From Methylothermaceae bacteria B42 (GTDB lineage: Bacteria > Pseudomonadota > Gammaproteobacteria > Methylococcales > Methylothermaceae): DNA of 52,978 nucleotides. The notes under the pieces are model-generated. The model had not been told where the DNA came from and did no database searches. It saw only the letters and a program-made list of their open reading frames with translations. The translations under genes were made by a program, and so were the position numbers. The stretch lies in NCBI GenBank assembly GCA_001566965.1, contig LSNW01000036.1, positions 1 through 52,978 of the forward strand, read 5' to 3'. This document shows positions 31,327 to 51,921 of the stretch, piece by piece; position 1 is the first letter of the stretch; each line of letters opens with the position of its first letter.

Positions 31327-31330
31327 TTGA

Positions 31331-32344: not shown

Positions 32345-32552
32345 ATTCCACCTAACTTTGCAAGTGATTCGAGACCAAGGGTGTCAAGCAAGGCTTTGGG
32401 CAAGGCGGCAAGCCGCTTTTCGCACAGGCGTGGCAGCGCTACTTCGAGCATAAAATGAGTGCAGCCAACGCAGCATAAAGGCTTGATTTGGCAGCCGAAT
32501 GCCAAAACACTTGCAGAATTTAGGTTTTAGCTTAACCCAAGCTAATTTAAGC

Positions 32553-32582
32553 AAAGGCGCCTTAATGGCGCCTTTGTTGTTT
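32553..32582. terminator. Bidirectional rho-independent terminator between the PPIase gene and the convergent GGDEF gene
   Basis: AAAGGCGCC-TTAAT-GGCGCCTTT followed by GTTGTTT. The plus-strand U-tract is clear; minus-strand function is inferred. Confidence 0.75.
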
Positions 32583-32635
32583 AACCCGGATATTTCACCA
32601 GCATCCCGGATGGATGGTGAAATATCCGGGTTAAA
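32581..32635. repeat. REP-like palindromic element (20-bp perfect inverted arms, 15-nt spacer)
   Basis: TTAACCCGGATATTTCACCA / TGGTGAAATATCCGGGTTAA. It shares the core CCCGGATATTTCACCAGC with the repeat pair at 40101-40242 and overlaps the stop codon of the GGDEF gene. Confidence 0.75.
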
Positions 32636-33785: not shown

Positions 33786-33806
33786 GGTTAATATTCCAAG
33801 CGTAGT

Positions 33807-35837
<2,031 letters not shown>

Positions 35838-36566: not shown

Positions 36567-36581
36567 TGCAATCCTCTTCCT

Positions 36582-39500
36582 CTATGCGGCCGCCATTTCC
36601 GCGGCTTTTTCCAGATCCACGGCGACAATGCGGGAAACGCCGGGTTCGCGCATGGTCACGCCAATCAACTGCTCGGCGATTTCCATGGTGGTTTTATTGT
36701 GACTGATAAATATGAATTGTACCCGCTCTGACATGGATTGCAGAAGTTGGCAATAGCGTCCCACATTGGCCTCATCCAGTGGCGCGTCAACTTCGTCCAG
36801 CAGGCAAAAAGGCGCGGGGTTCAATTCAAAGAAGGAGAATACCAGCGCCACGGCGGTCAGCGCCTTTTCGCCGCCGGAGAGAAGATGAATGGAGCTGTTG
36901 CGCTTGCCGGGCGGGCGGGCGACAATTTTGACCCCGGCATCGAGCAGGTCTTCTCCCACCAGTTCCAGTTTGCCTTCGCCGCCGCCAAACAGGGTGGGGA
37001 AGCGTTGCTTGAAATGACCGTCGATGGTGTCAAAGGTTTCCTTGAAACGGGCCCGGCTTTCCCGGTCGATTTTGCGGATGGCTTTTTCCAGCATTTTCAG
37101 GGAAGCGTTTAAATCCTCGAATTGCTTGTCGAGAAAGCGCAGGCGTTCGCTGTGGAGGCGATGTTCCTCGATGGCGGTCAGGTTGACATCCCCCAGCCGG
37201 GCTTGCTCGGCCTTGGTTTGTTCCAGTTTGGCTTGCCATTGACTGGCGCTGGCGTCTTCGGGTAATTGACTCAACACCCCATCCAGCGGCGTTTGGGATT
37301 CCTGGGCTTGTTCTTGTACCGTAGTGAGTTTGACCCGTGCCGCTTCGGCATCGAGCCGGGCCTGTTCCAGGCGCTGGCGGGCTTGGTCCAGATCCGATTG
37401 GGCTTTATGATGGCGGGCGGTGAAATCCTGAAGCTGGTTTTCCGCCTGTTGCAACGCTTCCCTGGATTGCGTTAGCGCTTGTTCCAGCGGCGGGCGTTGT
37501 GCGAGGAGAGATTGGAGCTCTTGCTGCGCCTCCGCCAGAGGTTTTTTGCCCTCGCTTTGTTGGGACTGCGCGCCTTGTAAGCGTTCCCGCAGCGCTTGCT
37601 GATGCTGCGATGCCCGTTCCAACTGTTGGTGTAATAATTTGGCGGCGTTGTTGCAATGCTCCAGGGAAGATTCCAGTTTTTGCCGTTGTTCCCGCATGCG
37701 GCGGGCATGGGCGTCGGCTTGTTCAAAATCGGAGCGGGCCTGATGGGATTGGTTTTGCAGTGTATTCAAGTGCTGGCTGTATTGCTGTTCTTCTTGTTCC
37801 AGGTAGTGTAACTGCGCTTGTTGCCGGGAGAGATTTTCCTCAAATTCCGCCAGCTGACCTTCAAGCGTGGCTTGTTCCTCGGCCATTCTTGTCAGACGCC
37901 GCTGAATTTCCCCGACCCTGGCGCGGGTGGCGCTCAATTCGGCCTGAATCTTGCCGGCCTGCTGGGTGTGTTCTTTTTCCTGCTGGCGCAAGGATTCCTG
38001 CCGTTTTTCCAGTGCTTCCAGTTTCGTTTGGTACTGGTGGAGCATAGTCTGGGTTTGGGTTTGGCGGTTTTCTATTTCAACTAATTGGGCCTTGAGTTCC
38101 CGCAAGGCCTTTTCCCGTTCGAGAACACCGTGAGTGTTATCCTCGCCACGTTGAAATCGCAGCCAGTCGCGGCCAATCCGGTCACCCTCCGGCGTAACCC
38201 AGAAGTCTCCGGGGTTTAATTGATGACGCTGACGCAATCCCTTTTCCAGGGAATCACAACAGCGGGCGCCTTTCAGCAGGGAATCGAGATTCCACGGGCT
38301 TTGGATTTTGGCCGCCAGGGTCTCGGAATCTGGGGAAGACGCCATGGATTGGCCATGAAAAAACGCGGCATTTTCCTGATCCAGTTGACTGGCCAGTTGG
38401 TGGCAAAGATCCAGGTCTTCAATGCAAACCGCTTCCAGGAATTCCGCCAACACGGTTTCCACGGCATTGCTCCAGCCTTCGGCGGTTTCCAGCCGTTCCG
38501 CCAGGCGGGGAGCGTTGTCCCAGCCATGTTGCGCCAACAACGCATGCAGCTTGGGTTTGTCCTTGCCCAGTGCGTGGCGCTGCAGGGTTTCCATGGCGCG
38601 GATTTCTCCCTGAACCTGGCTGTGCTGACTGTGCAGGGATTGCAGTTGTTTCTGGGTTTCCGTGAGCGATTGGCGCAGGGCTTGAATTTGCTCCTTGACG
38701 GACTGGAGCGATTCGGCGTGTTGGGCGCGGGCGGTTTCGGTTTCTGCCAGTGCCTGTTCCAATCGGGATAAATTGGCTTGTTCGGCATTTTGATCCAGCT
38801 GGCTATGTTCTTCCCGCAGGCGGCTGAGGCGGTTTTGGGCTTCTTCCCGGCGCTGCTTGAGGTGGCGGATTTCCAGGCGCAACAATTCCAGTTGTTCTTT
38901 TTTTTGGTTCAATTCATCCCGCTTTTGGGCAAATTCCCGGCGCAGTTGATGCCACCGGGTTTCGGTGTCTTCACGCTGCTTCCAGGCTGCTTGTTCGTCA
39001 GCCCGGGCTTGTTCCAGAGCTTTTTCCAACTGTTGGCCTTGGGCTTGGTACGTTTCCTGTTGCCTGCGGTCCTGCTGGCTGGCGGCTTCAATGCGTTGCA
39101 ATTCATCCCGCCAGGCTTTGAGGCTTTTCTCCCGTTCTTCCAGGGTTTTTTGGGCGTGTTGGATGGTCTGATCGCAACGGCTGATGGCGCTGTTTAATTC
39201 ATAAAGCCGGGCCTGTAAGTCGTGGAGCTGGGTTTGGGTTTCCTCCACGCTTTGTTGCTGGCGGGATAAAGCCTGCCCCAGTTCGTGCAGGGCAGTGGTT
39301 TTGCTGTCTACTTCTTGTTGAAGCGTCTGGATCTTTTCTTGATGGGTTTGATGGGCGGCATTGGCTTCGCGCCATTTGATGGCCAGTAACTCTTGTTGTT
39401 GTTGCTGAATGGTCTGCTGCAACTCCCGGTACTTTGCCGCCTTTTTGGCTTGGCGTTCCAAGCGTTTGACCTGGGTTTGCAGCTCACTGCGAATATCTTC

Positions 39501-40082
39501 CAACCGTTCCAGATTGGTCCGGGTGTGCTGGATTTTCAGTTCGGTCTCGTGGCGGCGTTCCTTATATTTGGACAGGCCCGCAGCTTCCTCAATGAACAGC
39601 CGCAATTCTTCCGGCTTGGCCTCCACAAAACGGGACACCATGCCCTGTTCGATAATGGCGTAGCTTCTTGGCCCCAAGCCGGTTCCCAGAAACACGTCCA
39701 TAATATCGCGGCGGCGGCAGCGGGTACCATTGAGAAAATATTGGGATTGCCCGTCCCGACTGACCTGGCGTTTGAGCGCGATTTGGGCGTAGCGGGCGTA
39801 TTCTCCGCCCAGCCGGCCTTCGCTGTTGTCAAATATTAGTTCCACACTGGCCAAGCCCACCGGTTTGCGGCTGCTGGAACCATTGAAAATCACATCCGCC
39901 ATGGCGCTGCCACGCAGATGTTTGGCGGAACTTTCCCCCATCACCCAACGTACCGCGTCGATAATGTTGGACTTGCCGCAACCATTGGGGCCGACAATGC
40001 CAATCAACCGTTTGGGGAAAACGATGGTGGTGGGTTCGACAAAGGATTTGAAGCCGGCGAGTTTGATTTTTTCCAGACGCAT
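36582..40082 (-). CDS. smc: Chromosome segregation protein SMC
   Basis: 1166 aa with N-terminal Walker A GPNGCGKSN, long coiled coils, a hinge, and C-terminal LSGGEKALTAVAL ... LLDEVDAPLD (signature and Walker B). Confidence 0.95.
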   Translation of the reverse strand: MRLEKIKLAGFKSFVEPTTIVFPKRLIGIVGPNGCGKSNIIDAVRWVMGESSAKHLRGSAMADVIFNGSSSRKPVGLASVELIFDNSEGRLGGEYARYAQIALKRQVSRDGQSQYFLNGTRCRRRDIMDVFLGTGLGPRSYAIIEQGMVSRFVEAKPEELRLFIEEAAGLSKYKERRHETELKIQHTRTNLERLEDIRSELQTQVKRLERQAKKAAKYRELQQTIQQQQQELLAIKWREANAAHQTHQEKIQTLQQEVDSKTTALHELGQALSRQQQSVEETQTQLHDLQARLYELNSAISRCDQTIQHAQKTLEEREKSLKAWRDELQRIEAASQQDRRQQETYQAQGQQLEKALEQARADEQAAWKQREDTETRWHQLRREFAQKRDELNQKKEQLELLRLEIRHLKQRREEAQNRLSRLREEHSQLDQNAEQANLSRLEQALAETETARAQHAESLQSVKEQIQALRQSLTETQKQLQSLHSQHSQVQGEIRAMETLQRHALGKDKPKLHALLAQHGWDNAPRLAERLETAEGWSNAVETVLAEFLEAVCIEDLDLCHQLASQLDQENAAFFHGQSMASSPDSETLAAKIQSPWNLDSLLKGARCCDSLEKGLRQRHQLNPGDFWVTPEGDRIGRDWLRFQRGEDNTHGVLEREKALRELKAQLVEIENRQTQTQTMLHQYQTKLEALEKRQESLRQQEKEHTQQAGKIQAELSATRARVGEIQRRLTRMAEEQATLEGQLAEFEENLSRQQAQLHYLEQEEQQYSQHLNTLQNQSHQARSDFEQADAHARRMREQRQKLESSLEHCNNAAKLLHQQLERASQHQQALRERLQGAQSQQSEGKKPLAEAQQELQSLLAQRPPLEQALTQSREALQQAENQLQDFTARHHKAQSDLDQARQRLEQARLDAEAARVKLTTVQEQAQESQTPLDGVLSQLPEDASASQWQAKLEQTKAEQARLGDVNLTAIEEHRLHSERLRFLDKQFEDLNASLKMLEKAIRKIDRESRARFKETFDTIDGHFKQRFPTLFGGGEGKLELVGEDLLDAGVKIVARPPGKRNSSIHLLSGGEKALTAVALVFSFFELNPAPFCLLDEVDAPLDEANVGRYCQLLQSMSERVQFIFISHNKTTMEIAEQLIGVTMREPGVSRIVAVDLEKAAEMAAA

Positions 40083-40100
40083 GAATAATCAGAGAGTTTT

Positions 40101-40242
40101 GCTAGCCCGGATATTTCACCAGCCGGATTCGGGCTGAATCCAAATTGGATTTCGTAGAAATCATCAAACCTGAGCACTTTATGTTTAAGAATCAGTTGAT
40201 TACAAAAAAGCCCGAATCCGGCTGGTGAAATATCCGGGCTAG
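40101..40242. repeat. REPIN-like element: two 34-bp perfect inverted repeats flanking a 74-bp AT-rich spacer
   Basis: GCTAGCCCGGATATTTCACCAGCCGGATTCGGGCT at 40101-40134 and its exact reverse complement at 40209-40242. Same core as the REP at 32581. Confidence 0.75.
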
Positions 40243-40354
40243 AGCCGGGCGCTGACGAAAGTTGTGAAAACCCGTATTATACGCAAGGAGCCAGGAAAAA
40301 ACCTGTTTCCTGTTCGAACACCCAACCGTTAATCTCACACCCGTATTTAGAACT

Positions 40355-40711
40355 ATGTCGACAAAACCCAGCAGAGAACTTGAAACCTTCCCCAACCCTA
40401 ACCCGGATCGTGATTACACTATCCGTATCGAGACCCCGGAATTTACCTGCTTGTGTCCTAAAACCGGGCAGCCGGATTTCGCCCACATCACCGTGGAATA
40501 TATTCCCGATAAATTATGCGTGGAACTCAAATCCTACAAGCTTTATATCTGGTCCTACCGCGATCTGGGCGCCTTTCACGAGGCGGTCACCAACCAGATT
40601 CTGGATGATTTGGTAGGGGCGTGCCAACCCCGCTGGATGAAGGTGGAAGCCAAATTCAACGTCCGCGGCGGGATTTACACCACCGTGATGGCGGAATACG
40701 AAAGAAACTGA
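40355..40711 (+). CDS. queF: NADPH-dependent 7-cyano-7-deazaguanine reductase QueF (unimodular type)
   Basis: 118 aa with [17 protein letters not shown] (the QueF catalytic Cys motif, E(F/S)K..S.CP.TGQPD) and the QueF E...E-type C-terminus. Confidence 0.9.
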
Positions 40712-40854
40712 AGCACGGCGGTTGCTATTTCCAGAACGCAAGGGAATAGTGTTGCTGAATAGTGGCATTCTTGGTCATCAGGATGGCTCATATTACATGC
40801 TGTTCCGTTGGAGCAGATATCGGTTAACGCTTGGACCCGATCATAGGAAATAAA

Positions 40855-42657
40855 ACGATGGAGATGAATACAGCGCCAGAAATCTCCCAACTGGTCTGGC
40901 AGACCAAGTACCGGGCCGAGGGCGAGACAAGTATTCGCGATACCTGGCAGCGGGTGGCCAACGCGGTGGCGTCGGTGGAAGCGGATGCCGATGAGTGGAG
41001 CGGCCGGTTTTACGCCATTTTGAAGGATTTTAAATTCCTTCCCGGCGGGCGAATCCTTGCCGGTGCCGGCACCCGCAAACAAGTCACCTTGTTCAACTGC
41101 TTTGCAATGGGGTTGATAGAAGATTCCCTGGACGGAATCTTCGAATCCCTAAAGGAAGGGGCCTTGACCATGCAGCACGGTGGCGGCGTCGGTTATGATT
41201 TTTCCACCCTCCGCCCCAAGGGTACCCCGGCCCGCAGCGTGGGCGGCATCGCTTCGGGCCCGGTGTCCTTTATGCATATTTGGGATGTGACCTGTGCCAT
41301 TCTCCTGTCCACCGGCAGCCGCCGGGGTGCCATGATGGCGACTTTGCGCTGCGATCATCCCGATGTCGAAGACTTTATCGAAGCCAAGCGCGATCCCAAT
41401 GTCTTGCGTAATTTCAACCTCTCGGTCAAGGTCACGGATGATTTCTTGAAGGCCGTGGAAAAGGACGAGGAATGGCTGCTGGTGTTTCCTCAAGCCGCGT
41501 TGGCTGATGGGGTGGGAGAGGGGGCCGTGCTTCGCGAGTGGCCCGGCTACCCGGGACCGGTACCATGTAAGATACTGAAGCGTCTCCCGGCCCGGGATTT
41601 ATGGCACAGGTTGATGCAAGCGACTTATGATGTGGCGGAACCTGGGGTGCTGTTCATTGACCGCATCAACCACCTCAACAATCTGTACTATTGCGAAAAG
41701 ATCCATATCACCAACCCCTGCTCGGAAATTCCATTGCCGCCTTACGGGGCTTGCGATTTGGGGTCAATTAATCTGGTCCGCTTTGTCCGTGATCCTTTCA
41801 CCCCAGAAGCCCGCCTAGATTTCCAGGCCATTGAAGCATTGGTGCCCGTGGCGGTGCGTTTTCTCGATAATGTGATTGACTTATCCCGGTTTCCCCTCAC
41901 CCGGCAAAAGGCGCAGGCCCATAAGACCCGGCGGATCGGACTGGGACTGACAGGATTGGCGGATGTGCTGATTATGCTGGGACTTCACTATGACAGTGAC
42001 GCCGCCAGGGAATTGGCCGAAAAAATCATGGCCACCATCTGCCATGCCGCTTACCGGGCATCGGTGGCTTTGGCGAAGGAAAAGGGTGCTTTTCCCGCTT
42101 TTGAAGCGGAGCCCTATTTGGATGGCGCTTTCGTTACCGGGTTGCCAAATGACATTCGCGATGCCATCGCCAAGCATGGACTCCGTAATAGCCACTTGAC
42201 CGCCATCGCGCCCACCGGTTCTATCAGCCTGCTGGCGGGCAACGTCTCCAGCGGTTTGGAACCGGTTTTTTCCTTCCGGTATCAACGCCGCATCCAACTG
42301 GCTGGCACTGAGTGCCGGATGGTGGATGTGGAAGACGCCGCTTACCGCTTATGGCGGAAAATATATTCAGACAAGCCCTTGCCTTCCACCTTTGTCACCG
42401 CCACCGAACTTTCCCCAAACGCCCATTTGGTCATGCAGGCAGTTCTGCAAAAGCATGTGGACAATGCCATTTCCAAAACCATTCATATTCCAGAAGACTA
42501 CCCCTTTGAGGATTTCCAGAATGTGTATCTGCGCGCCTACCAACTGGGGCTCAAAGGCTGCACCACCTACCGCCCCAGCCCTGTTCGCGGCACCGTCATC
42601 CTGCCGCAAACCGTGCCGGACCGGCATTGCTGTGATATTGATCGGGAGGGGGATTAG
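40855..42657 (+). CDS. nrdJ: Adenosylcobalamin-dependent (class II) ribonucleoside-diphosphate reductase NrdJ
   Basis: Class-II RNR motifs including NPCSEIPLPPYGACDLGSINL and a C-terminal Cys pair. The start was refined to ATG 40855 (MEMNTAPEIS). The last 18 codons lie inside a 54-bp sequence that recurs at 49451. Confidence 0.85.
   Translation, partial: TMEMNTAPEISQLVWQTKYRAEGETSIRDTWQRVANAVASVEADADEWSGRFYAILKDFKFLPGGRILAGAGTRKQVTLFNCFAMGLIEDSLDGIFESLKEGALTMQHGGGVGYDFSTLRPKGTPARSVGGIASGPVSFMHIWDVTCAILLSTGSRRGAMMATLRCDHPDVEDFIEAKRDPNVLRNFNLSVKVTDDFLKAVEKDEEWLLVFPQAALADGVGEGAVLREWPGYPGPVPCKILKRLPARDLWHRLMQATYDVAEPGVLFIDRINHLNNLYYCEKIHITNPCSEIPLPPYGACDLGSINLVRFVRDPFTPEARLDFQAIEALVPVAVRFLDNVIDLSRFPLTRQKAQAHKTRRIGLGLTGLADVLIMLGLHYDSDAARELAEKIMATICHAAYRASVALAKEKGAFPAFEAEPYLDGAFVTGLPNDIRDAIAKHGLRNSHLTAIAPTGSISLLAGNVSSGLEPVFSFRYQRRIQLAGTECRMVDVEDAAYRLWRKIYSDKPLPSTFVTATELSPNAHLVMQAVLQKHVDNAISKTIHIPEDYPFEDFQNVYLRAYQLGLKGCTTYRPSPVRGTVILPQTVPDRHCCDIDREGD
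42603..42656 (+). repeat. 54-bp direct repeat, copy 1 (encodes the NrdJ C-terminus)
   Basis: GCCGCAAACC-GTGC-CGGACCGGCATTGCTGTGATATTGATCGGGAGGGGGATTA. The 40-bp core is identical to 49465-49504. Confidence 0.85.
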
Positions 42658-42844
42658 TTCAAGAGGTCATATCACATTAAAATTCAGGTAAAACTTGCCT
42701 TTGAGAGAAAGTGGTTTCTGCTAAACGAATTTGCCGCTCAGTTTGAGAACGAATAATGGGATTACCGTTGCATTTGCAAACTCAATGACTGTCACGCGCC
42801 GAAATCACTTGTGCGCCGATAAAGCGGAGTTTGCTTCAGTCAAG

Positions 42845-42867
42845 GTTGGGGCAATATCGCCCCAACC
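42845..42867. terminator. Strong 9-bp GC hairpin immediately after the SPFH gene stop, convergent with nrdJ
   Basis: GGTTGGGGC-aatatc-GCCCCAACC, with a weak U-tract on the plus strand only. Confidence 0.45.
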
Positions 42868-44040
42868 TCATCCATTCGCGGTTTTCCCCAAAGCTGCGGG
42901 AATGCGCACCATATCATTAAGAATGCCGTCCAATCCGCCATAGACGTTCAAGGTGCTGATTTGGCTGGTGATTTTCTCCAGCACTTCCAGTTCCTTCAAG
43001 CGCAATAGCGTTGGGTTGCCTTCCATGACTTTGGCGGTATTGTGCAGTGACCGGGTCGCCTGGGTTTCTTCCCGGCGCTTGATCAGATTGGCTTCAGCCC
43101 GTTTTTGCGCTTCCACCACCTGGGCCAGGATAGTTTTCATTTCCCCGGGCAGGACAATATCCCGGGCTCCCACGCTGACGACGGTGATGCCGTATTCAGC
43201 GGCTTTTTTGGCAGCGATTTTCTTGACCTCCTGGTTCAACTGGTTTTTGTCCTCCAGCAGTTCATCCAGGGTTTGGGTGGAAACCACCGCCCGCAATGCC
43301 AGTTGCAATTCCCGATAGAGGAAGTCGTCCGGACTGGCGAGGGATTCACATACCTTGAGCGCATCGGCAACTTGCCAGGTTGCCGATAGATTGATGCGCA
43401 GGCTGACCCGGTCCTTGGTGAGGATTTCTTGGCCATTGACTTCCATGTTTTGCAACCGGCAGTCAATCTGACGGATTTTCAGATTGCGGTTGAATTTCCA
43501 CCAGGCGTGAATACCCGGCTCTAATGCAATAGGTTGTTCACCGTCGATTTCCAGAAACCCCACATGTTGTTGAGGGATGGTTGCGGTGATGACGGCATCC
43601 ACGGCGGAAGCTCTCAATTGCGGGGCTTTGGATGCCAGCACGATTCTGGCCAGGGTTTTGTCCAGTTTGAACTCCCGTAAAATGTTCAGCTTACGCACTT
43701 CGATATCGCCAAATCCACGCCAATACGCGCCTTCCCGGGCGGGTGGCTTGATTTCCCGCAGGGCGCCGTTGTTATAGACCAGCCCCACTTCCTGCTCGCC
43801 GGTTTGCCAGGATTGCAAATGTCGCCCCAAAATTTCGGGGTGCAATTTCAAAACCTTTAGAACTTCATCGCTGACACCGTTTTCCAGGGTGGTGCTAATG
43901 TCTTCCAGCAAAACCCGGTATTTCCTGTTCCAATTTAATAGTCTGTAAACGCCGGGCATTAAAACCTTTTGAAATTGTTCGTTCCTGAACAACAGACCCC
44001 GATGGGTTTCGGGAACGATGATTTTTTTAAAAAACAACAT
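42868..44040 (-). CDS. SPFH/band-7 (stomatin/flotillin-like) domain protein, apparently soluble, co-directional with and downstream of rtcB
   Basis: ~390 aa from ATG 44040 (MLFFKKIIVPETHRGLLFRNEQF...LMPGVY...), a typical SPFH N-terminal strand pattern. Band-7 core ...ILTKDRVSLRINLSATWQV... and a long C-terminal coiled coil (EAQKRAEANLIKRREETQATR). No TM segment is seen. RBS AAGGAG. Confidence 0.75.
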   Translation of the reverse strand: MLFFKKIIVPETHRGLLFRNEQFQKVLMPGVYRLLNWNRKYRVLLEDISTTLENGVSDEVLKVLKLHPEILGRHLQSWQTGEQEVGLVYNNGALREIKPPAREGAYWRGFGDIEVRKLNILREFKLDKTLARIVLASKAPQLRASAVDAVITATIPQQHVGFLEIDGEQPIALEPGIHAWWKFNRNLKIRQIDCRLQNMEVNGQEILTKDRVSLRINLSATWQVADALKVCESLASPDDFLYRELQLALRAVVSTQTLDELLEDKNQLNQEVKKIAAKKAAEYGITVVSVGARDIVLPGEMKTILAQVVEAQKRAEANLIKRREETQATRSLHNTAKVMEGNPTLLRLKELEVLEKITSQISTLNVYGGLDGILNDMVRIPAALGKTANG

Positions 44041-44354
44041 AGTCTTCTCCTTGCTTGAAACAAAATTCAAATGGCAAAAGCCCCACGCTCAGCCCGGCCC
44101 AATGGTTTGTGAAACCCAGGAGGATCAAGGGTGGGAGGGATATTGTCCCTCCGGGCCATGAACCCGCTGGAATCAAACCCGCCACCGGGGCGGTCTGGAC
44201 GCTGATTCTTGCCATGGTTTGGCAGTCTCCGGCTTCCGCGGTGTGGGGCTTCCGTTTGGCTGCCCCGCGCCGGGAAACTTGAAGGCTTCCATTCCACGGC
44301 GCGAATCCGGGGTTTTTACCGTATGCCCTTGCGGGAGGAAAGAACGCCTTTCGG

Positions 44355-44431
44355 CTGGTAACGCTAGCCGGATTCGAACCGGCTACCCATCGATTACAGA
44401 TCGATTGCTCTACCAGAATGAGCTATAGCGT
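44355..44431 (-). tRNA. tRNA gene with encoded CCA and non-canonical features: A1-U72 and A2-U71 in the acceptor, and anticodon loop UCUGUAA (anticodon UGU, Thr-like, with C at position 33)
   Basis: 77-nt perfect cloverleaf on the minus strand: acceptor AACGCTA/TAGCGTT, D-stem GCTC/GAGC, anticodon stem ATCGA/TCGAT, T-stem GCCGG/CCGGC with T-loop TTCGAAT, discriminator A, then CCA. Isotype is uncertain because U33 is replaced by C. The palindromic ATCGAT makes the loop register the only ambiguity. Confidence 0.8.
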
Positions 44432-44457
44432 TGGTCATGAGATGGATTCGAACCATC
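44432..44457 (-). ncRNA. tRNA 3'-half-like fragment (T-arm plus 3' acceptor strand) abutting the 5' end of the tRNA gene
   Basis: The minus strand reads GATGG-TTCGAAT-CCATC-TCATGAC-C, a consensus T-arm followed by a 7-nt acceptor strand and discriminator. No complementary 5' acceptor strand exists upstream, so it is not a complete tRNA. Confidence 0.5.
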
Positions 44458-44633
44458 GTAACCACGTCGGGAAGACGCTATCCATTCCGTTCTGCCAGAT
44501 ACGCCCAGACTCAGTGAGTCCGGCGTCAGGCTGGTATCCAGAACCAGCACCGCAAGACAGCCCGGAAATGAATTCCTGGGGGGTATCCCCCCACCAGCAG
44601 GCGGCACTGGCATTCGGCCGCCACCGGTATGTT

Positions 44634-45863
44634 TTATCCTTTGACACAAACCACCTGTTTCAGTGTGTGGACAATTTCCACCAAGTCCCGCTGGGCGGCC
44701 ATCACTTGTTCAATGGGTTTGTAAGCCGCTGGGGTTTCATCAATGACGCCCTCGTCCTTGCGGCATTCCACGCCGTCGGTGGCCAGCAGGTGCTGTTCCA
44801 GGGTGATTGCCTTTTTGGCCTCGGTGCGGGACATGACCCGGCCCGCGCCGTGACTGCAGCTGCAAAAGCTTTCCTCATTGCCCAGGCCCCGGACGATAAA
44901 AGATTTGGCTCCCATGCTGCCGGGGATGATGCCCATTTCTCCCTTTCTGGCGCTGACCGCGCCCTTGCGGGTTACCCAGACCCCCTGGCCATAATGCTGC
45001 TCCTTGCGGATGTAGTTGTGGTGGCAGTTCACCGCTTCCAGCGCCGATTCGAAAGTTCGTCCCAAGGCTTTGGCGATGACTTGCAGGGTTCTTCTCATCA
45101 TGACCTCCCGGTTGACCCGGGCGAAATCCTGTGCCCAGGCCACCGCGGCTACATAGTCAGTGAAGTGTTCGCTGCCTTCGGGCAAATAAGCCAGATCCTG
45201 GGCGGGAAGGTGAATGAACCAGCGCTCCATTTCTTTCTTCGCCTTTTCAATGAAATGGTTGCCTATGGCATTACCAACCCCTCTTGAACCACTGTGCAGC
45301 ATTACCCAAACTTGCTGGTTTTCATCCAGACACACTTCGATAAAATGATTGCCGGTACCTAGTGTTCCCAGATGTTTGATATTATTGGTGTTTTTTATGA
45401 ATCCATGCTTTTCCGTCAGGCGATTGAATCCCTCGGCCAATGGTTGCCAGGCGTCGGCTACATCCTCTGGCACCTCGCCCCAACTTCCCTTGTCCCGTGC
45501 GCCGCGCCGTAATTTTTTGGAGCGGCCGTGGGGGACCGCCTTTTCAATGGCGCTGCGCATGTTACCCAGATGATCTGGCAGATCACTGGTGGTAAGGGAA
45601 GTTTTTACCGCCATCATCCCGCATCCCAAGTCAACGCCAACCGCAGCGGGAATCACCGCGCCCACCGTGGGAATCACGCTTCCGATAGTCGCGCCTTTGC
45701 CGACGTGGACATCAGGCATGGCCGCCACCCAGCGGTGGATAAAAGGCATCCGGGTAAGATTCAACAGCTGTTGTCTGGTTTTATCGTCGCATGGCACGCC
45801 CCGGGTCCAGGATTTCACCGGAACCTGGGAATAGGCTTCATGCATTACTTCGTAACTGACCAT
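44634..45863 (-). CDS. rtcB: RNA-splicing ligase RtcB (3'-phosphate/5'-hydroxyl RNA ligase)
   Basis: 409 aa with RtcB-family His/Cys metal-ligand motifs (...DVHVGKGATIGSV..., CHHNY, GTGNHFIEV, and the SCSHGAGR region around the nucleophilic His). RBS AGGAGA. No rtcA is adjacent. Confidence 0.92.
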   Translation of the reverse strand: MVSYEVMHEAYSQVPVKSWTRGVPCDDKTRQQLLNLTRMPFIHRWVAAMPDVHVGKGATIGSVIPTVGAVIPAAVGVDLGCGMMAVKTSLTTSDLPDHLGNMRSAIEKAVPHGRSKKLRRGARDKGSWGEVPEDVADAWQPLAEGFNRLTEKHGFIKNTNNIKHLGTLGTGNHFIEVCLDENQQVWVMLHSGSRGVGNAIGNHFIEKAKKEMERWFIHLPAQDLAYLPEGSEHFTDYVAAVAWAQDFARVNREVMMRRTLQVIAKALGRTFESALEAVNCHHNYIRKEQHYGQGVWVTRKGAVSARKGEMGIIPGSMGAKSFIVRGLGNEESFCSCSHGAGRVMSRTEAKKAITLEQHLLATDGVECRKDEGVIDETPAAYKPIEQVMAAQRDLVEIVHTLKQVVCVKG

Positions 45864-45903
45864 GTGATTTTCTCCTGTAAAAAAAATCTCTCATGAGGGT
45901 AAC

Positions 45904-45919
45904 AGCATGGAGCGTGCCA
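45904..45919 (-). promoter_or_regulatory. Sigma54 (-24/-12) promoter upstream of rtcB
   Basis: The minus strand reads TGGCACGCTCCATGCT, with the GG and GC dinucleotides spaced exactly as in the consensus TGGCACG-N4-TTGCW. It lies ~40 nt upstream of the rtcB start and is divergent from rtcR. Confidence 0.7.
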
Positions 45920-46054
45920 AAAATTATTCAGGACCTATATTTCTTGTATGTTATTGAAACTGCGTTATTTTCTCCTGAAAAAGAAATTATGCTGGCAACC
46001 TGGATTCCAAACAGATAACATTTTCTGTATATAATTTTATAAATAGTTATAAAA

Positions 46055-47644
46055 ATGAATAATACCGTTGTAAGTATTTTGGGCCAGCGTCTGGATAATG
46101 CTGGATACGGCCAAAAACGCTGGTTGCGTTGGCGTCCTACTTTATCGCTACTCATGCACCATGAGTTTCCCGTGGACGAACTGGTCTTGATCCACCATCG
46201 GGAGGAACAACGCCTGGCGGATCTCACCATGAATGATGTCTTGCACATCTGTCCCGGCTTGAAGGTGACACCCTATGTTACCGACTTTCATGATCCCTGG
46301 GATTTTGAGCAGGTCTATGGCCAGCTCCATGATTTTGCCCACGACTATCCTTTCGATCCTGAGCGCCGCCAATATTATTTCCATATCACTACTGGCACCC
46401 ATGTTGCCCAGATATGTGTGTATTTGCTGACCGAGGCGAATTATTTCCCGGGCAAATTAATTCAAACCGCCCCGAGTAAAACCGGCCCTGACGGCGTTTA
46501 TCAGATTATCGACCTGGATTTATCCCGTTATGACAAGATCGCTTCCCGTTTCCGCCGGGAAGAACAGGAGGCTATTCGCCATCTCAAAAGCGGAATCGAG
46601 ACCCGCAACCGTGGATATAACCAGATGATTACGGAAATAGAGCAGGTGGCGGTACGGTCCACGGCGCCGATTTTCCTGACCGGTCCCACTGGCGTTGGCA
46701 AATCCCACCTGGCCAGGAAAATCTATGAATTAAAGCGGCAACGGGGCCAACTCACGGGACGTTTTGTGGAAGTTAATTGCGCCACCTTGCGCGGCGATAA
46801 TGCCATGTCTACTTTGTTTGGCCATGTGAAGGGCGCTTATACCGGGGCCGCCCGAGACCGGGCCGGATTGTTAATGGAAGCAGACGGCGGTTTGCTGTTT
46901 TTGGACGAAATCGGCGAGCTGGGGCTGGACGAGCAAGCCATGTTGTTGCGCGCCATTGAGGACCGGGTATTTACACCCCTCGGTTCGGATCGTGAGGTCA
47001 GCAGTCATTTTCAGTTGATTGCGGGCACCAACCGGGATTTGCAAGAGCGGATAAGCCAGGGACTGTTTCGGGAGGATTTGTTGGCCCGGATAAACTTGTG
47101 GCGCTACAGTTTGCCCAGCCTGCGGGAAAGATCAGAAGATATCGAACCCAATATTGAGTTTGAATTGCAACGCTTTGCCCGGGAACGGAACCAGAAGGTC
47201 AGCTTCAACCGCGCCGCCAAAGCCAAATATCTCGCCTTTGCCTTAAGCAACGAGGCCTTGTGGCGGGCTAACTTCCGGGATTTGAACGCCAGCATCACTC
47301 GCATGGCCACCCTGGCCACCAGTGGCAGAATCAGCGAGGAAATTGTGGAAAACGAACTTGCCCGCTTGCGGGCGGATTGGCAGGGTGGCGTCAGGCTTGA
47401 TGAAGACTTTGATTCCCTCGGGGCGTTGTTAAAAAAGGATGTTTATGAGCAGCTTGATCTGTTCGAGCGGCTTCAACTTGCCCAGGTTATCCGTATCTGC
47501 CAGCAAAGCCACAGCCTGGCCGACGCCGGCCGGAAATTGTTTGACAAAAGCCGCTTGCGCAGAAAAGCTGGTAATGATTCACAGCGTCTTCGGGCGTATC
47601 TCCAAAAATACGGTTTAGTATTTAAAGACTTGCAGCTAAGCTAG
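46055..47644 (+). CDS. rtcR: Sigma54-dependent transcriptional activator RtcR (N-terminal CARF domain, AAA+ sigma54-interaction domain, C-terminal HTH)
   Basis: 529 aa. The N-terminal ~190 aa resemble the RtcR CARF domain. AAA+ Walker A GPTGVGKS, GAFTGA-like loop GAYTGA, and ESELFGH-type region (STLFGH) are present. C-terminal HTH. Divergent from sigma54-promoted rtcB. Confidence 0.92.
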   Translation: MNNTVVSILGQRLDNAGYGQKRWLRWRPTLSLLMHHEFPVDELVLIHHREEQRLADLTMNDVLHICPGLKVTPYVTDFHDPWDFEQVYGQLHDFAHDYPFDPERRQYYFHITTGTHVAQICVYLLTEANYFPGKLIQTAPSKTGPDGVYQIIDLDLSRYDKIASRFRREEQEAIRHLKSGIETRNRGYNQMITEIEQVAVRSTAPIFLTGPTGVGKSHLARKIYELKRQRGQLTGRFVEVNCATLRGDNAMSTLFGHVKGAYTGAARDRAGLLMEADGGLLFLDEIGELGLDEQAMLLRAIEDRVFTPLGSDREVSSHFQLIAGTNRDLQERISQGLFREDLLARINLWRYSLPSLRERSEDIEPNIEFELQRFARERNQKVSFNRAAKAKYLAFALSNEALWRANFRDLNASITRMATLATSGRISEEIVENELARLRADWQGGVRLDEDFDSLGALLKKDVYEQLDLFERLQLAQVIRICQQSHSLADAGRKLFDKSRLRRKAGNDSQRLRAYLQKYGLVFKDLQLS

Positions 47645-47716
47645 GTAAGCTCTGACGGAGCGGTTAGGGGCAGCTTTAAATCTGATGTTACGCAATTTAC
47701 GGCAAAGACCGCGCTG

Positions 47717-47830
47717 TCACCCCCTCTCCCAGAGGGAGAGGGGGTTCAAGGCAGGGTTCGTCGCTCCCTCCACCGCTTGCGGGGGAGGGCCGGGGAGGGG
47801 GCTTTGTTTTGCCTGCGAGCCAATGAAAGG
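47717..47830. terminator. Bidirectional terminator region between convergent rtcR and M48 peptidase genes (two G/C-rich palindromes; the second is followed by a U-tract)
   Basis: CCCCCTCTCCC-aga-GGGAGAGGGGG (perfect 11-bp stem) and CCCTCC...GGGGGAGGG...GGGGAGGGGGCTTTGTTTT. Confidence 0.6.
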
Positions 47831-47894
47831 ATTCCTTGTCTGGTCATGTACTGTGTTTGAGCCTGACTGTGCGTAACCTCAGTATAAAGGCTTT

Positions 47895-49334
47895 TTAACG
47901 GGCGATACGCGCCGAAATCACCTGGGTTCTGACAGTACGCAGCCTTTTTGCGGGCAGGTTGCGTAGGCCCAGGTTGATATATCTTGTTCTGCCGGCCAGC
48001 AAAACGCCGAATAAACGGCGCTTGAATTGCCGACTGTGTCCTCTGGCGTCCTGGTATTGAACGGCAATGACGACGCCTCTCATATCATGCTGGGTTGGAT
48101 TGCTTATCTCGGCTTTCAAGCGCCCAAACAAATCCACGCCGGTTCTGAGGCGCAGGTATTGCCCGGGATTACCGCCGCGAGGATTAACCAGCGATTTGCG
48201 GGAAGATTTGCCGCGCCCAACAATACTACGCCAAGGCAAAAGGCAGTATCGGTGGGCGGCCAGGGTATTGTCCAGGTATTTGTTGAGCAGGGCGCGTTTC
48301 AGATAGTAATAGAAAAAATCGCCATTCAGGCGGATGGCTTTGTCGAAGTGTCTTTTGGCGGCACGGAAATTTTGTCTTTTCCCTTCGATATCTCCGAGCA
48401 GCGCGCAAAAATGGCCTTCCTTGGGTTCGATCTGGATGGCCTTATTGGCCAGCCTGAGCGCCTGGCTGAGATCGCCTTCCGCCAGAGCCTTCCGCCCCTT
48501 GCCATAGGCATCGTAAGCTGGTTTGACCCGTTTGAGATGGGCCAGTTTTTGTCGAAAGCGCTTAACCCCTATAATGCCGCCCTTGGGTAATGTCGCCGCG
48601 GTTCGCATGTTATTTTCCACCCGTTCCTGTGACGGCGGGTGGCTGGCAAGCAAGCCAGTCAACCAGTTCCGCCGGCGTCCCTTGGCCAGCTCGACAAAGG
48701 TTTTTTGCAAGGTGACCGCCCCCTGCGGGTCATAACCCGCCCTAGACATATATTTCATGCCGTAGAGGTCTGCTTCCCGTTCCGCGTCCCGGCCATATTC
48801 TGGGTTAGAAGCGCCGAGCCTAACTGGGCGCCCAAGGTTGCCAGCTGGGCATAATTGGAACCCTGGGTGCCGATGGCGGTCGCCAAAATCGCGCCTTTTA
48901 ACAACATGCCACGGGATAATTTGCGGGCGGTGTGTTTTGCTGCCGCATGCACGATTTCATGACCAAGCACGGCCGCCAGCTCGGCTTCGTTATTGAGTTC
49001 CGTCAGCAGGCCCCGGTTAATTGAAATCTTCCCGCCAGGCAGCGCCCAGGCGTTGGGAACGGAATTGTTGATAACCTTGAATTCATATGGTAAGCGGCGG
49101 TCGCTGACAGCCGCCAGCTTTTGGCCGATTTCGTTTACATAGGCGGTCAATTCTGGATCGGCCACATAATCCCCTCCCTGGATTTGCCGCATGGGGGCGT
49201 AATTTTTTTGCCCGATTTGCAGTTCAATGGATTCGGGAACCAACATTAGCTCTCTGTGACCTGTGACAGGATTGACCGCGCAGCCACCCAGGCAAATGGC
49301 AAGCAGAAGCAGGGAAAAAAGCAGATTTTTTCAT
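47895..49334 (-). pseudogene. M48-family Zn metallopeptidase lipoprotein (BepA/YcaL-like, HExxH plus C-terminal TPR) interrupted by two frameshifts
   Basis: HEIVHAAAKH (HExxH) lies in ORF 48755-49246. The conserved EYGRDAEREADLYGMKYMSRAGYDP continues in another frame (ORF 47895-48758), with the shift near 48795. A perfect lipoprotein signal (MKN)LLFSLLLLAICLGGCAVNPVTGHREL is only in frame with an ATG at 49332-49334 if a T6/A6 homopolymer (49326-49331) is one nt shorter. Confidence 0.7.
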
Positions 49335-49450
49335 TTTCGCAAGTCCAAGCAGTTATATTACCGAGCCGCTGTAGTTGAATGCGGTTAGCAGTCCGTTGAT
49401 TTTAGATGTATTTTTGAGTTACGTTGTGTTGATGTCAATACAGTCAGAAT

Positions 49451-49504
49451 GCCGCAAACCTTGTCGGACCGGCATTGCTGTGATATTGATCGGGAGGGGG
49501 ATTA
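49451..49504 (+). repeat. 54-bp direct repeat, copy 2 (degenerate copy of the nrdJ 3' end, intergenic)
   Basis: GCCGCAAACC-TTGT-CGGACCGGCATTGCTGTGATATTGATCGGGAGGGGGATTA. The 40-bp core is identical to 42617-42656; the 5' part differs by the substitution GTGC to TTGT. Confidence 0.85.
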
Positions 49505-49580
49505 AGGGCCTATTATGCGTTTGCCATTAAAAAGAGAGAAGCCGGCGCATCCTGCGCCGGCGGGAAGTTGAAGCGATTTT

Positions 49581-50258
49581 TTAATTACGGGGTTTTTTCC
49601 TCCATGACATTCCCGCAATGAGTCCGTAGGCGGGCAGCGCCATCACAAGGGCGGGCGGCAAGGGAACCGCCTGGGGGATGACAAAGTTATCCAATGAGGT
49701 TTCTTCGCAGCAACTTTTGGAAATAGGGTCAAACGGCTCGTTCCAGGTGATTTTGGTGATGGGGGTATCGCTAAGCACACCAATGAAAACCGGCGTTTGT
49801 TCCGTGGCCCCGGGAGGCACCGGGAATGGCCCCAAGGAATCCCCGTCTTTGAATTCTATGCTCAGCAGCCCGGGATTGGCGTCCGGGTCAAATGCCTCTA
49901 TATCAAAGCCAACGGCTTTGTGGGGCAGGGAAAAATGGATGTCATAGGCGGAAAAGGCCCCGTTATCTCCCCGTCCCTGGTTATCAATGGAGAATAGCTC
50001 TTTATCGCCGGTGCCTTGGAAAATTTCCAGGCGGTCCAGGTTGGTGGTGACAGAAATCCCCGGCAAGAATTCCACGCCCATCATATCGGTCCCGTTGGGA
50101 AAACTCTCGAAATCCTGGGTGTCTGTCGGTCCGCCCAAATCCGCCAGGAAAGAGGCGCGGTTTCCGTAAACGGTATAGGTTGCGGCATTTACCAAGGCAG
50201 GTAAGGTCATGGCGATCCCAAGACACGTAATCACTAAAAGATTTGCTGGTTTCTTCAT
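49581..50258 (-). CDS. PEP-CTERM-like sorting-domain protein, secreted
   Basis: Signal peptide MKKPANLLVITCLGIAMTLPALVNA. C-terminus AVPLPPALVMALPAYGLIAGMSWRKKPRN has a VPxP-like motif, a TM helix and a basic tail. Confidence 0.7.
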   Translation of the reverse strand: MKKPANLLVITCLGIAMTLPALVNAATYTVYGNRASFLADLGGPTDTQDFESFPNGTDMMGVEFLPGISVTTNLDRLEIFQGTGDKELFSIDNQGRGDNGAFSAYDIHFSLPHKAVGFDIEAFDPDANPGLLSIEFKDGDSLGPFPVPPGATEQTPVFIGVLSDTPITKITWNEPFDPISKSCCEETSLDNFVIPQAVPLPPALVMALPAYGLIAGMSWRKKPRN

Positions 50259-50289
50259 GATGATCTCCTGTGGTTAATTGGTTATGGTG

Positions 50290-50940
50290 TTATTCAGTAA
50301 ATTTTTTCAACTGACAACCTTCCGACATTTCCACCACCAGGCTCCAGTCATCCAGCCAGAAATTAGGGTTGGCGCCTGTGGAAAAATTGGTTACTTTCCA
50401 CTCAACGGTAACTTCGACGGTTTTGAAGTTATCGCTGTTGTTTTTTACGCACTGATGCCGGCTCATGGCGTGGCCTTCCCAAGATCCATCGCCTTCCGTT
50501 CCACCGTCGGTGCTATCAAAGGCAAAGGTATCTGGAGGAAACACCGAAGCTTTCGGCGCGCCTTCGCTGCCATCTATGAGAATCCTCACTTCGCACCAGC
50601 CGAAATCGGTTTTCCCGGCCAAATCTTTACAGCGCGATTCCGCGTCAAAACTGGCATTGACCAGTACCGTGCTGCGGGGTGGAATTGTCACTTTTGTCCT
50701 GGCGTGTTTTAAGGGAACGAACTTCCGGGAAGAGGTGGTCTGCGGCTTGGTGCTGCTGATGACCTGTTTAAAAAAATGCGCACCGGAAGTGCGGACTTCA
50801 TAATCCGATTCTTTCACCGGGGGCAAAATGATGACCGGAGGATCAAGCGGGTTTAATTGTGGTTCGTCAATCAGATTGACCAGGTTATCCCTGAGATCAG
50901 CCGAAGCAGGTTGGCCCAGGGCGGAAGAAAGCACGAACAA
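50290..50940 (-). CDS. Secreted hypothetical protein (possible N-terminal frameshift)
   Basis: 216-aa ORF whose N-terminus (L)FVLSSALGQPASA is the h/c-region of a signal peptide lacking an n-region. An out-of-frame ATG (MNREAF*) 28 nt upstream would give MNREAxLTTLFVLSSALGQPASA if one nt were added in a T4 run. Confidence 0.55.
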   Translation of the reverse strand: MFVLSSALGQPASADLRDNLVNLIDEPQLNPLDPPVIILPPVKESDYEVRTSGAHFFKQVISSTKPQTTSSRKFVPLKHARTKVTIPPRSTVLVNASFDAESRCKDLAGKTDFGWCEVRILIDGSEGAPKASVFPPDTFAFDSTDGGTEGDGSWEGHAMSRHQCVKNNSDNFKTVEVTVEWKVTNFSTGANPNFWLDDWSLVVEMSEGCQLKKFTE

Positions 50941-51324
50941 TGTGGTTAAAAGGCTTCTCTATTCATAACAGTCTCCTTTTTCATTGAGGTTGATGGTTCA
51001 ACTTCAGTCCTTTGCGGAATTAACGCATCCTTTCGTTAACTCAAGATAAGAAGACGTTGAAAACTATGAGTAATAAAAATTTTACAAAAATTCTGTGAGA
51101 TATTTGCTTGACAATCCTGGGCTTTCATGTTCTAGGGACTCACTTGGCTTTAATTGGCCATTACAAAAACGGTGCTCGAAGTTGGCGGGATTTATTCTCC
51201 TTGAACGGACCAAATTTTTTACGAGACTCTTATGCCTTAGGTTTCATGGCAAAAGGGATTGGCTTTTTTTACCTAGGGGCGGCTACACTACCATAAACAG
51301 GCAATCGGGGAAGGAAGGGGAATC

Positions 51325-51921
51325 ATGTCCAACAATTGTGAAGACTTCATCATCGCCGTGATGGCGAAAGACCGGCCTGGCATTATTGCCGCCATCGCCC
51401 AAACGGTGTTCGAGCTTGGCGGGAATGTGACCGAGTTGAGTCAAACCGTGATGGGCGGTTATTTTACTTTGATTCTTAGGGCCACATTGCCGGCGGAGCG
51501 GGAGGAAAACGTTATAAAGCAACGTCTGGAAGGGGACTGGCCCCAGTTAGGGCTGGCGGCGTGCGTGAGGCGTTACACGCCCGAGCGGTTGTTTGAGCCG
51601 GAATTGGATACCGCTGCGTATTTTCTGACCATGCAGGGCGGGGACCGCCCCGGCTTGATTGCCCGCATAACCCGTTATCTTGCCGGGCGGCAAATCAATA
51701 TAGAAGACCTTTACACCCGTACTGAAGGCGACGCCATTACCTTGATCTTGCAAATCCGTCCCCAAAACCGGCGGAGCGCGGAGCAATTGCGGGAGGATCT
51801 GGACAAGCTGGGCGAAGAACTGGGCATTCAAATTCATCTGCTCCACCAGGATATCCTCCGCGCCACCAGTGAAGTGGGTGCGATTCGCCGGATGGTGCGA
51901 CAAGGAGAGTGTCTGTCATGA
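51325..51921 (+). CDS. ACT-domain protein (tandem ACT, UPF0237/GcvR-like)
   Basis: 198 aa with two ACT-like repeats (IIAVMAKDRPGIIAAIAQTVFELGGNV and FLTMQGGDRPGLIARITRYLAGRQINI); translationally coupled to the downstream UPF0210 gene. Confidence 0.75.
   Translation: MSNNCEDFIIAVMAKDRPGIIAAIAQTVFELGGNVTELSQTVMGGYFTLILRATLPAEREENVIKQRLEGDWPQLGLAACVRRYTPERLFEPELDTAAYFLTMQGGDRPGLIARITRYLAGRQINIEDLYTRTEGDAITLILQIRPQNRRSAEQLREDLDKLGEELGIQIHLLHQDILRATSEVGAIRRMVRQGECLS

Follow-up and report, generated by a model that had tools for sequence, protein, structure and literature searches.

Gene Content of the Locus

The DNA analysed here, called the window below, is a stretch of 52,978 nucleotides that makes up the first 53 kb of a 207-kb contig of the uncultured hydrothermal-vent methanotroph Methylothermaceae bacterium B42 (contig records ENA ERZ940665 k127_465147 and NCBI DROA01000014.1). 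The contig begins about 48 nt to the left of the window, and nothing is available further leftwards. Our subject is the segment that follows nrdJ, the gene of the class II ribonucleotide reductase. It carries an RNA-repair (Rtc) module and is bounded by direct repeats of the nrdJ 3′ end. The features on which the argument depends are the following.

40858-42657, plus strand: nrdJ, class II (B12-dependent) ribonucleotide reductase, intact (Pfam Ribonuc_red_lgC, 443 bits, and lgN)
42592-42656, plus strand: direct repeat copy 1, the functional nrdJ terminus (robust part 42602-42656, core 42617-42656)
42868-44040, minus strand: SPFH/Band-7 slipin gene, the last of the rtc module (Pfam Band_7, 118.8 bits)
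44330-44545, minus strand: conserved non-coding RNA region in the spacer between rtcB and the SPFH gene
about 44466-44433, minus strand: tRNA 3′-half-like piece ending in CCA
44432-44356, minus strand: tRNA-like gene, 'Thr TGT' (ARAGORN; Rfam tRNA, 64 bits)
44634-45863, minus strand: rtcB, RNA ligase (Pfam RtcB, 438.6 bits)
45905-45919, minus strand: putative sigma-54 type promoter TGGCAC-N5-ATGC, read from the sequence
46055-47644, plus strand: rtcR, sigma-54 activator with a CARF-type RtcR domain (Pfam RtcR and Sigma54_activat)
47895-49246, minus strand: M48 peptidase gene with a TPR tail and BepA-like architecture, in two frames (48755-49246 and 47895-48758)
49440-49504, plus strand: direct repeat copy 2, the displaced non-coding nrdJ terminus (core 49465-49504)
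49541-49561: GC-rich hairpin between copy 2 and the convergent orf225
49581-50940, minus strand: orf225 and orf216, two secreted-protein genes (no Pfam or NCBIfam match)
51078-51190, plus strand: diverged remnant of the ACT 5′ end (repeat detection, nucleotide alignment)
51325-51921: ACT-domain gene, intact
42656-51250: the whole B42 block without counterpart in the nearest relative, L177/L178 (blastn map)

An earlier note on this DNA, made from the sequence alone, had placed the SPFH gene, a tRNA with a tRNA-half, rtcB, rtcR and a frameshifted M48 gene between the repeats, and the annotation of open reading frames (ORFs) and RNAs agrees with this list. The exact NrdJ protein is present on the 207-kb B42 contig, and its C-terminal HCCDIDREGD is kept in relatives.

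Duplication of the nrdJ Terminus

The end of nrdJ is duplicated 6848 nt downstream. Strict local alignment delimits a robust repeat of 55 nt (42602-42656 and 49450-49504) with two substitutions, and repeat detection gives a longer one of 65 nt at 91% identity (42592-42656 and 49440-49504). Within them a core of 40 nt (42617-42656 and 49465-49504) is exact, so that both alignment and motif search uphold the earlier claim of a recurring nrdJ 3′ end with an identical core of 40 bp. With three mismatches allowed, the core 40-mer matches the window at these two places only and has no match in 100 shuffled sequences. Neither the 10 kb beyond the right end of the window nor 190 other fetched loci yielded a third copy, and viral contigs gave no match; the copy number is two in the roughly 63 kb searched. 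At the other junctions of the module no further remnant of the nrdJ end scored above shuffled sequences.

The identity of the two copies stops at the second base of the stop codon. Read in the frame of nrdJ, copy 1 gives TVILPQTVPDRHCCDIDREGD followed by TAG and copy 2 gives TVRMPQTLSDRHCCDIDREGD followed by TAA. The change of GTGC to TTGT, which had been taken to break the frame, consists of two substitutions with no insertion or deletion, and copy 2 remains in frame up to its TAA. The six mismatches of the 65-mer are all confined to its left 25 nt (p about 0.002-0.003). Five of the six raise A+T, and of the two differences in the 55-mer at least one (C to T) is, by comparison with L177, a derived state of copy 2. 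The 10-nt leftward extension that separates the longer repeat from the robust one matches at 6 of 10 positions, barely above chance (about 0.02 by our own binomial arithmetic).

The surroundings of copy 2 were also inspected. The hairpin at 49541-49561 is the best terminator-like site of the region; its placement looks like that of a native terminator shared by nrdJ and orf225, and L177 also has a hairpin soon after its nrdJ stop. Of the sigma-70-like promoter matches in the region, the best (TTGACA-17-AAAAAT, 49438-49410, minus strand) begins one base left of copy 2 and is directed into the frameshifted M48 gene.

Could the repeat be an assembly artefact or a chance similarity? The source is a metagenome-assembled contig, which leaves room for the question. 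Against it, the shuffled sequences contain no match, and the same junctions, together with single-nucleotide polymorphisms (SNPs), recur in independent assemblies from other samples. One such contig from a different sample (L181, 99.84% identical, 18 SNPs) spans both repeat copies. Two Logan contigs from a third sample, assembled with k = 31, end exactly 30 nt (k-1) inside the core on both sides, as a true two-copy repeat predicts. All of the approximately eight B42-like strain contigs carry the cassette. An artefact is effectively refuted, and we leave it next to no probability.

The Rtc Module and Its RNA

The rtc module between the repeats is complete. Its RtcR scores 776 bits with the NCBIfam equivalog RNA_repair_RtcR, NF038308 (cut-off 650). 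The gene is divergent from rtcB, and about 40 nt upstream of rtcB lies TGGCAC-N5-ATGC, whose presumed promoter role follows from its agreement with the known sigma-54 consensus. The same intergenic region holds a repetition of 24 nt (45864-45887 and 45964-45987, 88% identical), in which a sequence that includes the ribosome-binding region of rtcB recurs 100 nt upstream.

In the E. coli rtc operon the RtcA cyclase is encoded as well. No rtcA is found between the repeats of B42; the SPFH gene and the tRNA-like RNA follow rtcB instead, and three other loci (L173-L175) have the same layout without rtcA. Homologues of the slipin with 70-77% identity, annotated as slipin family, adjoin rtcB or rtcR in other genomes. 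The unit of rtcR, rtcB, spacer RNA and SPFH gene recurs at 70-76% protein identity at unrelated sites, in L172-L175 and in Photobacterium pGJ3-1, and the nearest homologues of the module sit in loci of 40-47% guanine plus cytosine (GC). To judge from these comparisons, rtcR, rtcB, the tRNA-like RNA and the SPFH gene are a self-contained unit.

The spacer RNA consists of a 5′ hairpin, a unit resembling a tRNA 3′ half that ends in CCA, and a tRNA-like unit. It aligns and is conserved in L172-L175 (L172 1100-1380, L173 9560-9840, L174 9460-9740) and is also present at L187 5680-5821, while Photobacterium has tandem tRNA-like units at the same place in the module. The 'anticodon' of the tRNA-like unit varies by genome: Thr, Leu, Leu, a 4-nt loop and Met. 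The fold of the spacer RNA has a z-score of -2.6. Its match to YrlA stays below threshold (24 bits vs 69), and no Ro/Rsr gene is present in the B42 locus. The spacer RNA is conserved across the genomes with the module, and the tRNA-half therefore belongs to the non-coding RNA of the module and is not a scar of integration. This RNA may be a tRNA-mimic partner of RtcB and RtcR in slipin-type rtc modules.

On known plasmids and phages the cassette is represented by gene-level similarity of rtcB or rtcR only, and viral contigs hold no close relatives of the SPFH gene or of rtcR. A recombinase gene that adjoins the closest SPFH homologue (L176) was examined as a candidate mobility gene and rejected; it is a housekeeping XerD equivalog, and the adjacency is coincidental.

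The nrdJ Locus in Related Genomes

The closest syntenic relative is L177 (GCA_054017895.1), together with L178; NrdJ is 88% identical, at about 82% nucleotide identity. L177 is collinear with the window from ispA through ligA, zipA, SMC, queF and nrdJ, and its ACT gene stands 141 nt after nrdJ, with 69 nt between nrdJ and the ACT promoter. On the blastn map, window positions 30621-42655 equal L177 1-11756 and positions 51251-52978 equal L177 11826-13553. Missing from L177 and L178 are 8.6 kb (42656-51250), which comprise the repeat-bounded 6.85 kb, orf225, orf216 and about 310 nt. A related genome with nrdJ joined to the PEP-CTERM gene through a single 54-mer, which the earlier note proposed to look for, was not found. 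The site of the relative is nrdJ joined to ACT, and both PEP-CTERM-like genes (orf225 and orf216) therefore belong to the 8.6-kb lineage-specific block. Nor does any of the roughly ten contigs with an identical orf225 show nrdJ joined directly to it; all of those that reach leftwards have copy 2 and the M48 gene. The repeats enclose only the innermost part of a variable region made up of several layers.

The comparison covers a single close syntenic relative species, L177/L178, with L001 being of the same species (94-97% nucleotide identity). L001 and L082 are syntenic and end inside nrdJ, and the other nrdJ neighbourhoods obtained from GTDB genomes and JGI metagenomes are not syntenic. The interval between nrdJ and the pair hpf (S30AE)-dsbD widens stepwise across the Methylothermaceae. 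Here, nrdJ is followed directly by hpf-dsbD in L002, L005 and L083, by Hydrolase_4 and hpf in L084, by ApbE, Hydrolase_4 and hpf in L003, and by ACT, DUF711, o114, o179, Hydrolase_4 and hpf in L177; B42 has its 8.6 kb in addition. These nested intervals show that genes were repeatedly added, always directly after nrdJ, the B42 block being the most recent addition. In outgroups at 71-75% NrdJ identity the intervals downstream of nrdJ are shorter, and none of the B42-specific genes occurs there. Since the nearest relative is without the block, the Rtc module is lineage-specific cargo. Its accessory nature, suggested in the earlier note, is supported by its absence from the closest syntenic relative and by the presence of the module at unrelated sites elsewhere.

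Recombinases and Base Composition

A search for recombinase domains that took in the cassette, every sizeable ORF of the 53-kb window and the adjoining 10 kb on the right, a span reaching 42 kb leftwards and 13 kb rightwards of the insertion, found none. The earlier statement that no integrase or recombinase lies inside the segment is correct, as all ORFs of the cassette were assigned otherwise. No integrase-bearing element stands at nrdJ in the approximately 143 nrdJ loci whose gene end could be screened. Likewise, no integrative and conjugative element (ICE) or integrative and mobilizable element (IME) with a related att site was found within 10 kb of nrdJ, either by the repeat screen of the 143 loci or by a Pfam search of the first downstream genes in 9 loci.

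The screen did reveal another duplication. In the Burkholderiaceae locus L077 (also in L155) a stretch of about 500 nt from the nrdJ 3′ end recurs at 100% identity 3.69 kb further downstream, the copies lying around a BNR/Ig gene (L077 2709-3203 and 6400-6887). We rejected it as a parallel case; there is no recombinase, and it is either a separate phenomenon, perhaps a recent duplication, or a problem of assembly. Integration of the Xer/dif type, as used by integrative mobile elements exploiting Xer (IMEX), was also dropped from consideration: the locus lies beside atp and glmUS genes, the GC skew is monotonic, and no dif-like 28-mer was seen in the core (by inspection only).

An atypical composition is usual in integrative elements and not obligatory. 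When GC and codon usage of the cassette were compared with the flanks, as the earlier note had suggested, its GC content, the GC content at third codon positions (GC3) and its tetranucleotides proved host-like, with no sign of foreign origin. The cargo has therefore been long resident in a genome like that of B42. Together with the perfect non-coding copy of 40 nt, this host-like composition speaks for a move inside the lineage or among close relatives, and against a distant donor. The notion of horizontally acquired cargo stands to the extent that the module is accessory and absent from the nearest relative, and lacks the compositional sign that would mark it as foreign.

Recombination at the Right Edge of the Block

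The right edge of the B42-specific block has a remnant of its own. A piece of the ACT gene (51078-51190, matching 51321-51424) lies 234 nt upstream of the matching part of the intact gene. Aligned as nucleotides the two score 55, where shuffled sequences reach at most 39, and the peptide AITKTVLEVGG of the remnant corresponds to AIAQTVFELGG.

In the same place the strains diverge. Three strain variants (L181 1-122, L182 1-4203, and L183) follow the window at 99.6-99.8% identity as far as position 51114, where a sharp switch occurs. Beyond it they carry a different, longer ACT remnant of about 65-70% identity (L182 about 4070-4150), after which follow genes for a MoxR-type AAA protein, a DUF2201/VWA-metallopeptidase and an LRV-repeat protein, instead of a run into ACT. 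An independent Logan contig (L171/L184) bears out the arrangement of the window itself near 51114. That both flanking core genes have left remnants and that the alleles are mosaic shows that general recombination operates in this region.

Origin of the Repeat-Bounded Segment

How did the segment come to lie at the end of nrdJ? The data settle its topology: a single event placed 6.85 kb at the end of nrdJ, with 55-65 nt duplicated. We propose, at about even confidence, that a single crossover with circular DNA in the last 40 bp of nrdJ left 42657-49504 as the scar of an insertion, now an integrase-less islet resembling a cis-mobilizable element (CIME). The circle would have carried the rtc module (rtcR, a sigma-54-driven rtcB, the tRNA-like RNA and the slipin gene), the M48/TPR gene and a short look-alike of the nrdJ end, made up of a diverged left arm and 40 bp identical to the chromosome. 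One crossover with the chromosomal nrdJ terminus (Campbell-type integration), placed within the core, would leave an intact nrdJ that is chromosomal up to the core and takes its TAG stop from the incoming DNA. The original core with its TAA stop and terminator would be displaced by 6.85 kb to a position beside the convergent orf225. The actor might be a site-specific recombinase that was lost or acted in trans, as with CIMEs, or RecA, using the 40 bp of identity. The cassette would derive from a genome of similar composition, that of a relative or elsewhere in the same genome, and not from a distant donor. The circular intermediate, the crossover within the core and the enzyme are what we infer. 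A crossover of two diverged nrdJ ends inside an identical stretch would account for an identical core beside a diverged arm, and also for the regenerated reading frame and the native-looking terminator context of copy 2. Of the site-specific integration with attL and attR that had been suggested for this locus, the insertion at the nrdJ end, the regenerated frame and the displaced copy stand; site-specificity is no more than compatible with the data, and the ACT remnant points at least equally to general recombination, the alternative that the earlier note itself had named.

A number of results weigh against such an integration. Neither an integrase, an excisionase or a relaxase nor a remnant of one lies inside or near the segment, and no tyrosine recombinase adjoins nrdJ in any of the fetched loci (a crude tblastn search with XerD). 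Outside the B42 lineage no short duplicate of the nrdJ end occurs within 10 kb in the approximately 143 testable loci, no other copy of the core turned up in the window, the flanking 10 kb, the fetched loci or the viral contigs, and in the other genomes examined the module stands without flanking repeats or mobility genes. The composition is native: the tetranucleotide distance of the cassette is 0.152 vs 0.160 ± 0.029 for equal-sized windows, and its GC3 is 0.60-0.64 vs 0.60-0.66 for core genes, at 53% GC. The empty site of the relative does not match the repeats, as 8.6 kb are missing and not 6.85 kb. Clustering of the mismatches leans on the marginal 10-nt extension; in the 55-mer alone, with two mismatches in the first 15 nt, p is about 0.07 (our own arithmetic). 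Finally, the mirrored ACT 5′ remnant and the strain breakpoint at 51114 show that general recombination is active here.

The main rival, a serious though less likely one, is that linear DNA from a related methanotroph entered by homologous recombination at one end and an illegitimate second join at the other (homology-facilitated illegitimate recombination). In the donor, nrdJ would have been followed natively by the genes from SPFH to M48. The left end would have recombined inside nrdJ and the right end would have joined illegitimately 55-65 nt before the stop of the recipient nrdJ, making copy 1 the donor's and copy 2 the recipient's. Such a course needs neither an integrase nor a circle, and there is no recombinase nearby; it requires a closely related donor, which the native composition fits. 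It would also explain the mirror-image ACT 5′ remnant at the opposite edge of the block. The switch of the strains at 51114 from 99.6% to about 65-70% identity indicates that diverged alleles recombine here, and the stop codons of the two copies (TAG and TAA) differ as those of alleles would. However, the divergence of about 24% in the 25-nt arm predicts synonymous differences in the core, where B42 and L177 have four of them, yet the core is identical. Nor is a foreign 3′ tract visible in nrdJ, which diverges from its L177 counterpart evenly over the whole length. The donor-type arrangement was not found, and we know of no natural transformation in this uncultured lineage.

Two further explanations separate the repeat from a recent arrival of the cassette. 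The B42 arrangement could be old and L177/L178 could have deleted 8.6 kb, the repeat being the leftover of an ancient event and silent on a recent acquisition of Rtc. There is a single close syntenic relative species to compare, the composition of the cassette is fully host-like, and all of the B42-like strain contigs have it, all of which a deletion would accommodate. We nevertheless consider it improbable: the intervals of the outgroups are shorter still and without B42-specific genes, which makes a gain in B42 more parsimonious, and a non-coding 40-mer that still equals its coding counterpart, when third codon positions of nrdJ are only about 63% identical between B42 and L177, speaks for a recent event or ongoing conversion. 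More improbable yet, in our opinion, is that replication slippage, or break repair as a by-product, duplicated the nrdJ end locally, without relation to the arrival of the cassette, and that copy 2 then decayed slightly or is kept for the M48 promoter. The 55-mer with its two differences, the derived C to T change in copy 2, the rise of A+T in the 65-mer, which neutral decay would produce, and the sigma-70-like promoter at the left edge of copy 2 are what this would lead one to see. The copies, however, exactly bracket inserted DNA, and no simple mechanism places a duplicate 6.8 kb away without an insertion; transposon target duplications are far shorter than 55 nt.

Returning to a single crossover at the nrdJ terminus, one may ask whether it was an isolated event. 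It is conceivable, though doubtful, that the terminus is the att site of an unrecognised trans-acting system, which would carry integrase-less cassettes, among them a complete RtcR/RtcB/tRNA-like/slipin RNA-repair module, from one hydrothermal-vent methanotroph to another and place each directly behind nrdJ. The nested gains of genes in the family would then represent one integration after another at a single site.

Neighbouring Genes and Other Repeats

The M48/TPR gene at the right end of the segment is split between two ORFs. Pfam M48 positions 3-114 of 186 are matched in ORF 1 and TPR in ORF 2, and the BepA profile runs on across both. The M48 motif EREADLYGMKYMSRAGYDP is encoded in the frame of ORF 2, upstream of its ATG. 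The same split is present in other strains, and the NCBI annotation has no coding sequence at this locus. The gene is truly frameshifted and probably a pseudogene. Between rtcR and this gene lies a hairpin, CCCCCTCTCCC-aga-GGGAGAGGGGG, at 47720-47750, which recurs in another intergenic region of L177 (16742-16774) and in which the contigs L182 and L183 end; it is a dispersed terminator-like repeat.

To the right of copy 2, orf225 encodes a signal peptide and, judging from the translation, a C-terminal tail resembling a sorting signal (VPLPPAL-TM-RKK, TM being a transmembrane segment). Both orf225 and orf216 lie outside the repeats, yet they are missing from the nrdJ locus of the closest relative. 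In relatives the pair of homologues adjoins Macro/M18 or M4 peptidase genes, which is uninformative on polarity.

Two genes precede nrdJ.

36582-40082, minus strand: SMC
40355-40711: queF

Between them lies a perfect inverted repeat pair of 34 nt (40102-40135 and 40209-40242), an arm of which recurs elsewhere on the contig (L169 14623-14652) and at a contig end (L184). It is a small dispersed palindromic element, with a weak sub-threshold match to Rfam WsnRNA46.

Comparison with Known Systems

Comparison with the empty site of the nearest relative shows that a full Rtc module, consisting of activator, ligase, tRNA-like RNA and slipin, acts as portable cargo in this uncultured methanotroph of a hydrothermal vent, and the short interval after nrdJ is a hot spot of gene gain in Methylothermaceae. 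In other respects this is an ordinary insertion scar, which reveals no new mechanism and opens no long-standing question. Two cautions may be of general use: a repeat-bounded segment should not be equated with the whole acquired block, and integrase-less cases may equally be scars of recombination. In the literature searched we found no report of nrdJ as an insertion target.

CIMEs are flanked by att sites and have no genes for recombination, mobilization or conjugation (PMC7563491). In streptococci, CIMEs and decayed integrative elements occupy the 3′ ends of the housekeeping protein genes fda, rpsI, rpmG and rplL (PMC7563491). The B42 segment resembles them as a cargo-only insertion of a few kilobases without recombination or transfer genes, whose direct repeats duplicate the 3′ end of a housekeeping protein gene and leave the target intact, at a locus where elements pile up in tandem by the target gene. 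Unlike CIMEs, it has no known partner at nrdJ, be it an ICE, an IME, an integrase or a related att site, it holds no remnants of conjugation or recombination genes, and it occurs in a methanotroph of the Gammaproteobacteria. The segment contains no remnants of an ICE or IME from which it might derive, and the closest relatives of the module stand in plain chromosomal contexts.

Islands and prophages that carry their own integrase and enter tRNA genes, transfer-messenger RNA (tmRNA) genes or gene 3′ ends share with B42 the regenerated gene end, the displaced copy and a core of tens of base pairs. The B42 segment differs from them in being without an integrase and of composition that is not atypical, and in that the empty site of the relative is larger than the repeat-bounded segment. 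Scars of homology-facilitated illegitimate recombination and hot spots flanked by core genes are comparable in the insertion beside core genes and in the partial duplicates of gene ends at both edges, and also in the mosaic of alleles between strains and the lack of mobility genes. B42 is set apart from them by the perfect 40-bp core beside a diverged arm, which two diverged alleles would not give, and no donor arrangement is known here.

As for the cargo, RtcR-regulated loci are represented by the rsr-yrlBA-rtcBA operon of Salmonella (PMC7790460), and the rtc locus of P. aeruginosa has an embedded SPFH gene, PaFlo8 (PMC13086221). Unlike RtcR-regulated rtc loci, that of B42 is without rtcA and rsr (Ro), has tandem tRNA-like units and sits in a repeat-bounded insertion. 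With them it shares an RtcR equivalog, a putative divergent sigma-54 promoter, RtcB, an SPFH gene and a tRNA-like RNA beside rtcB.

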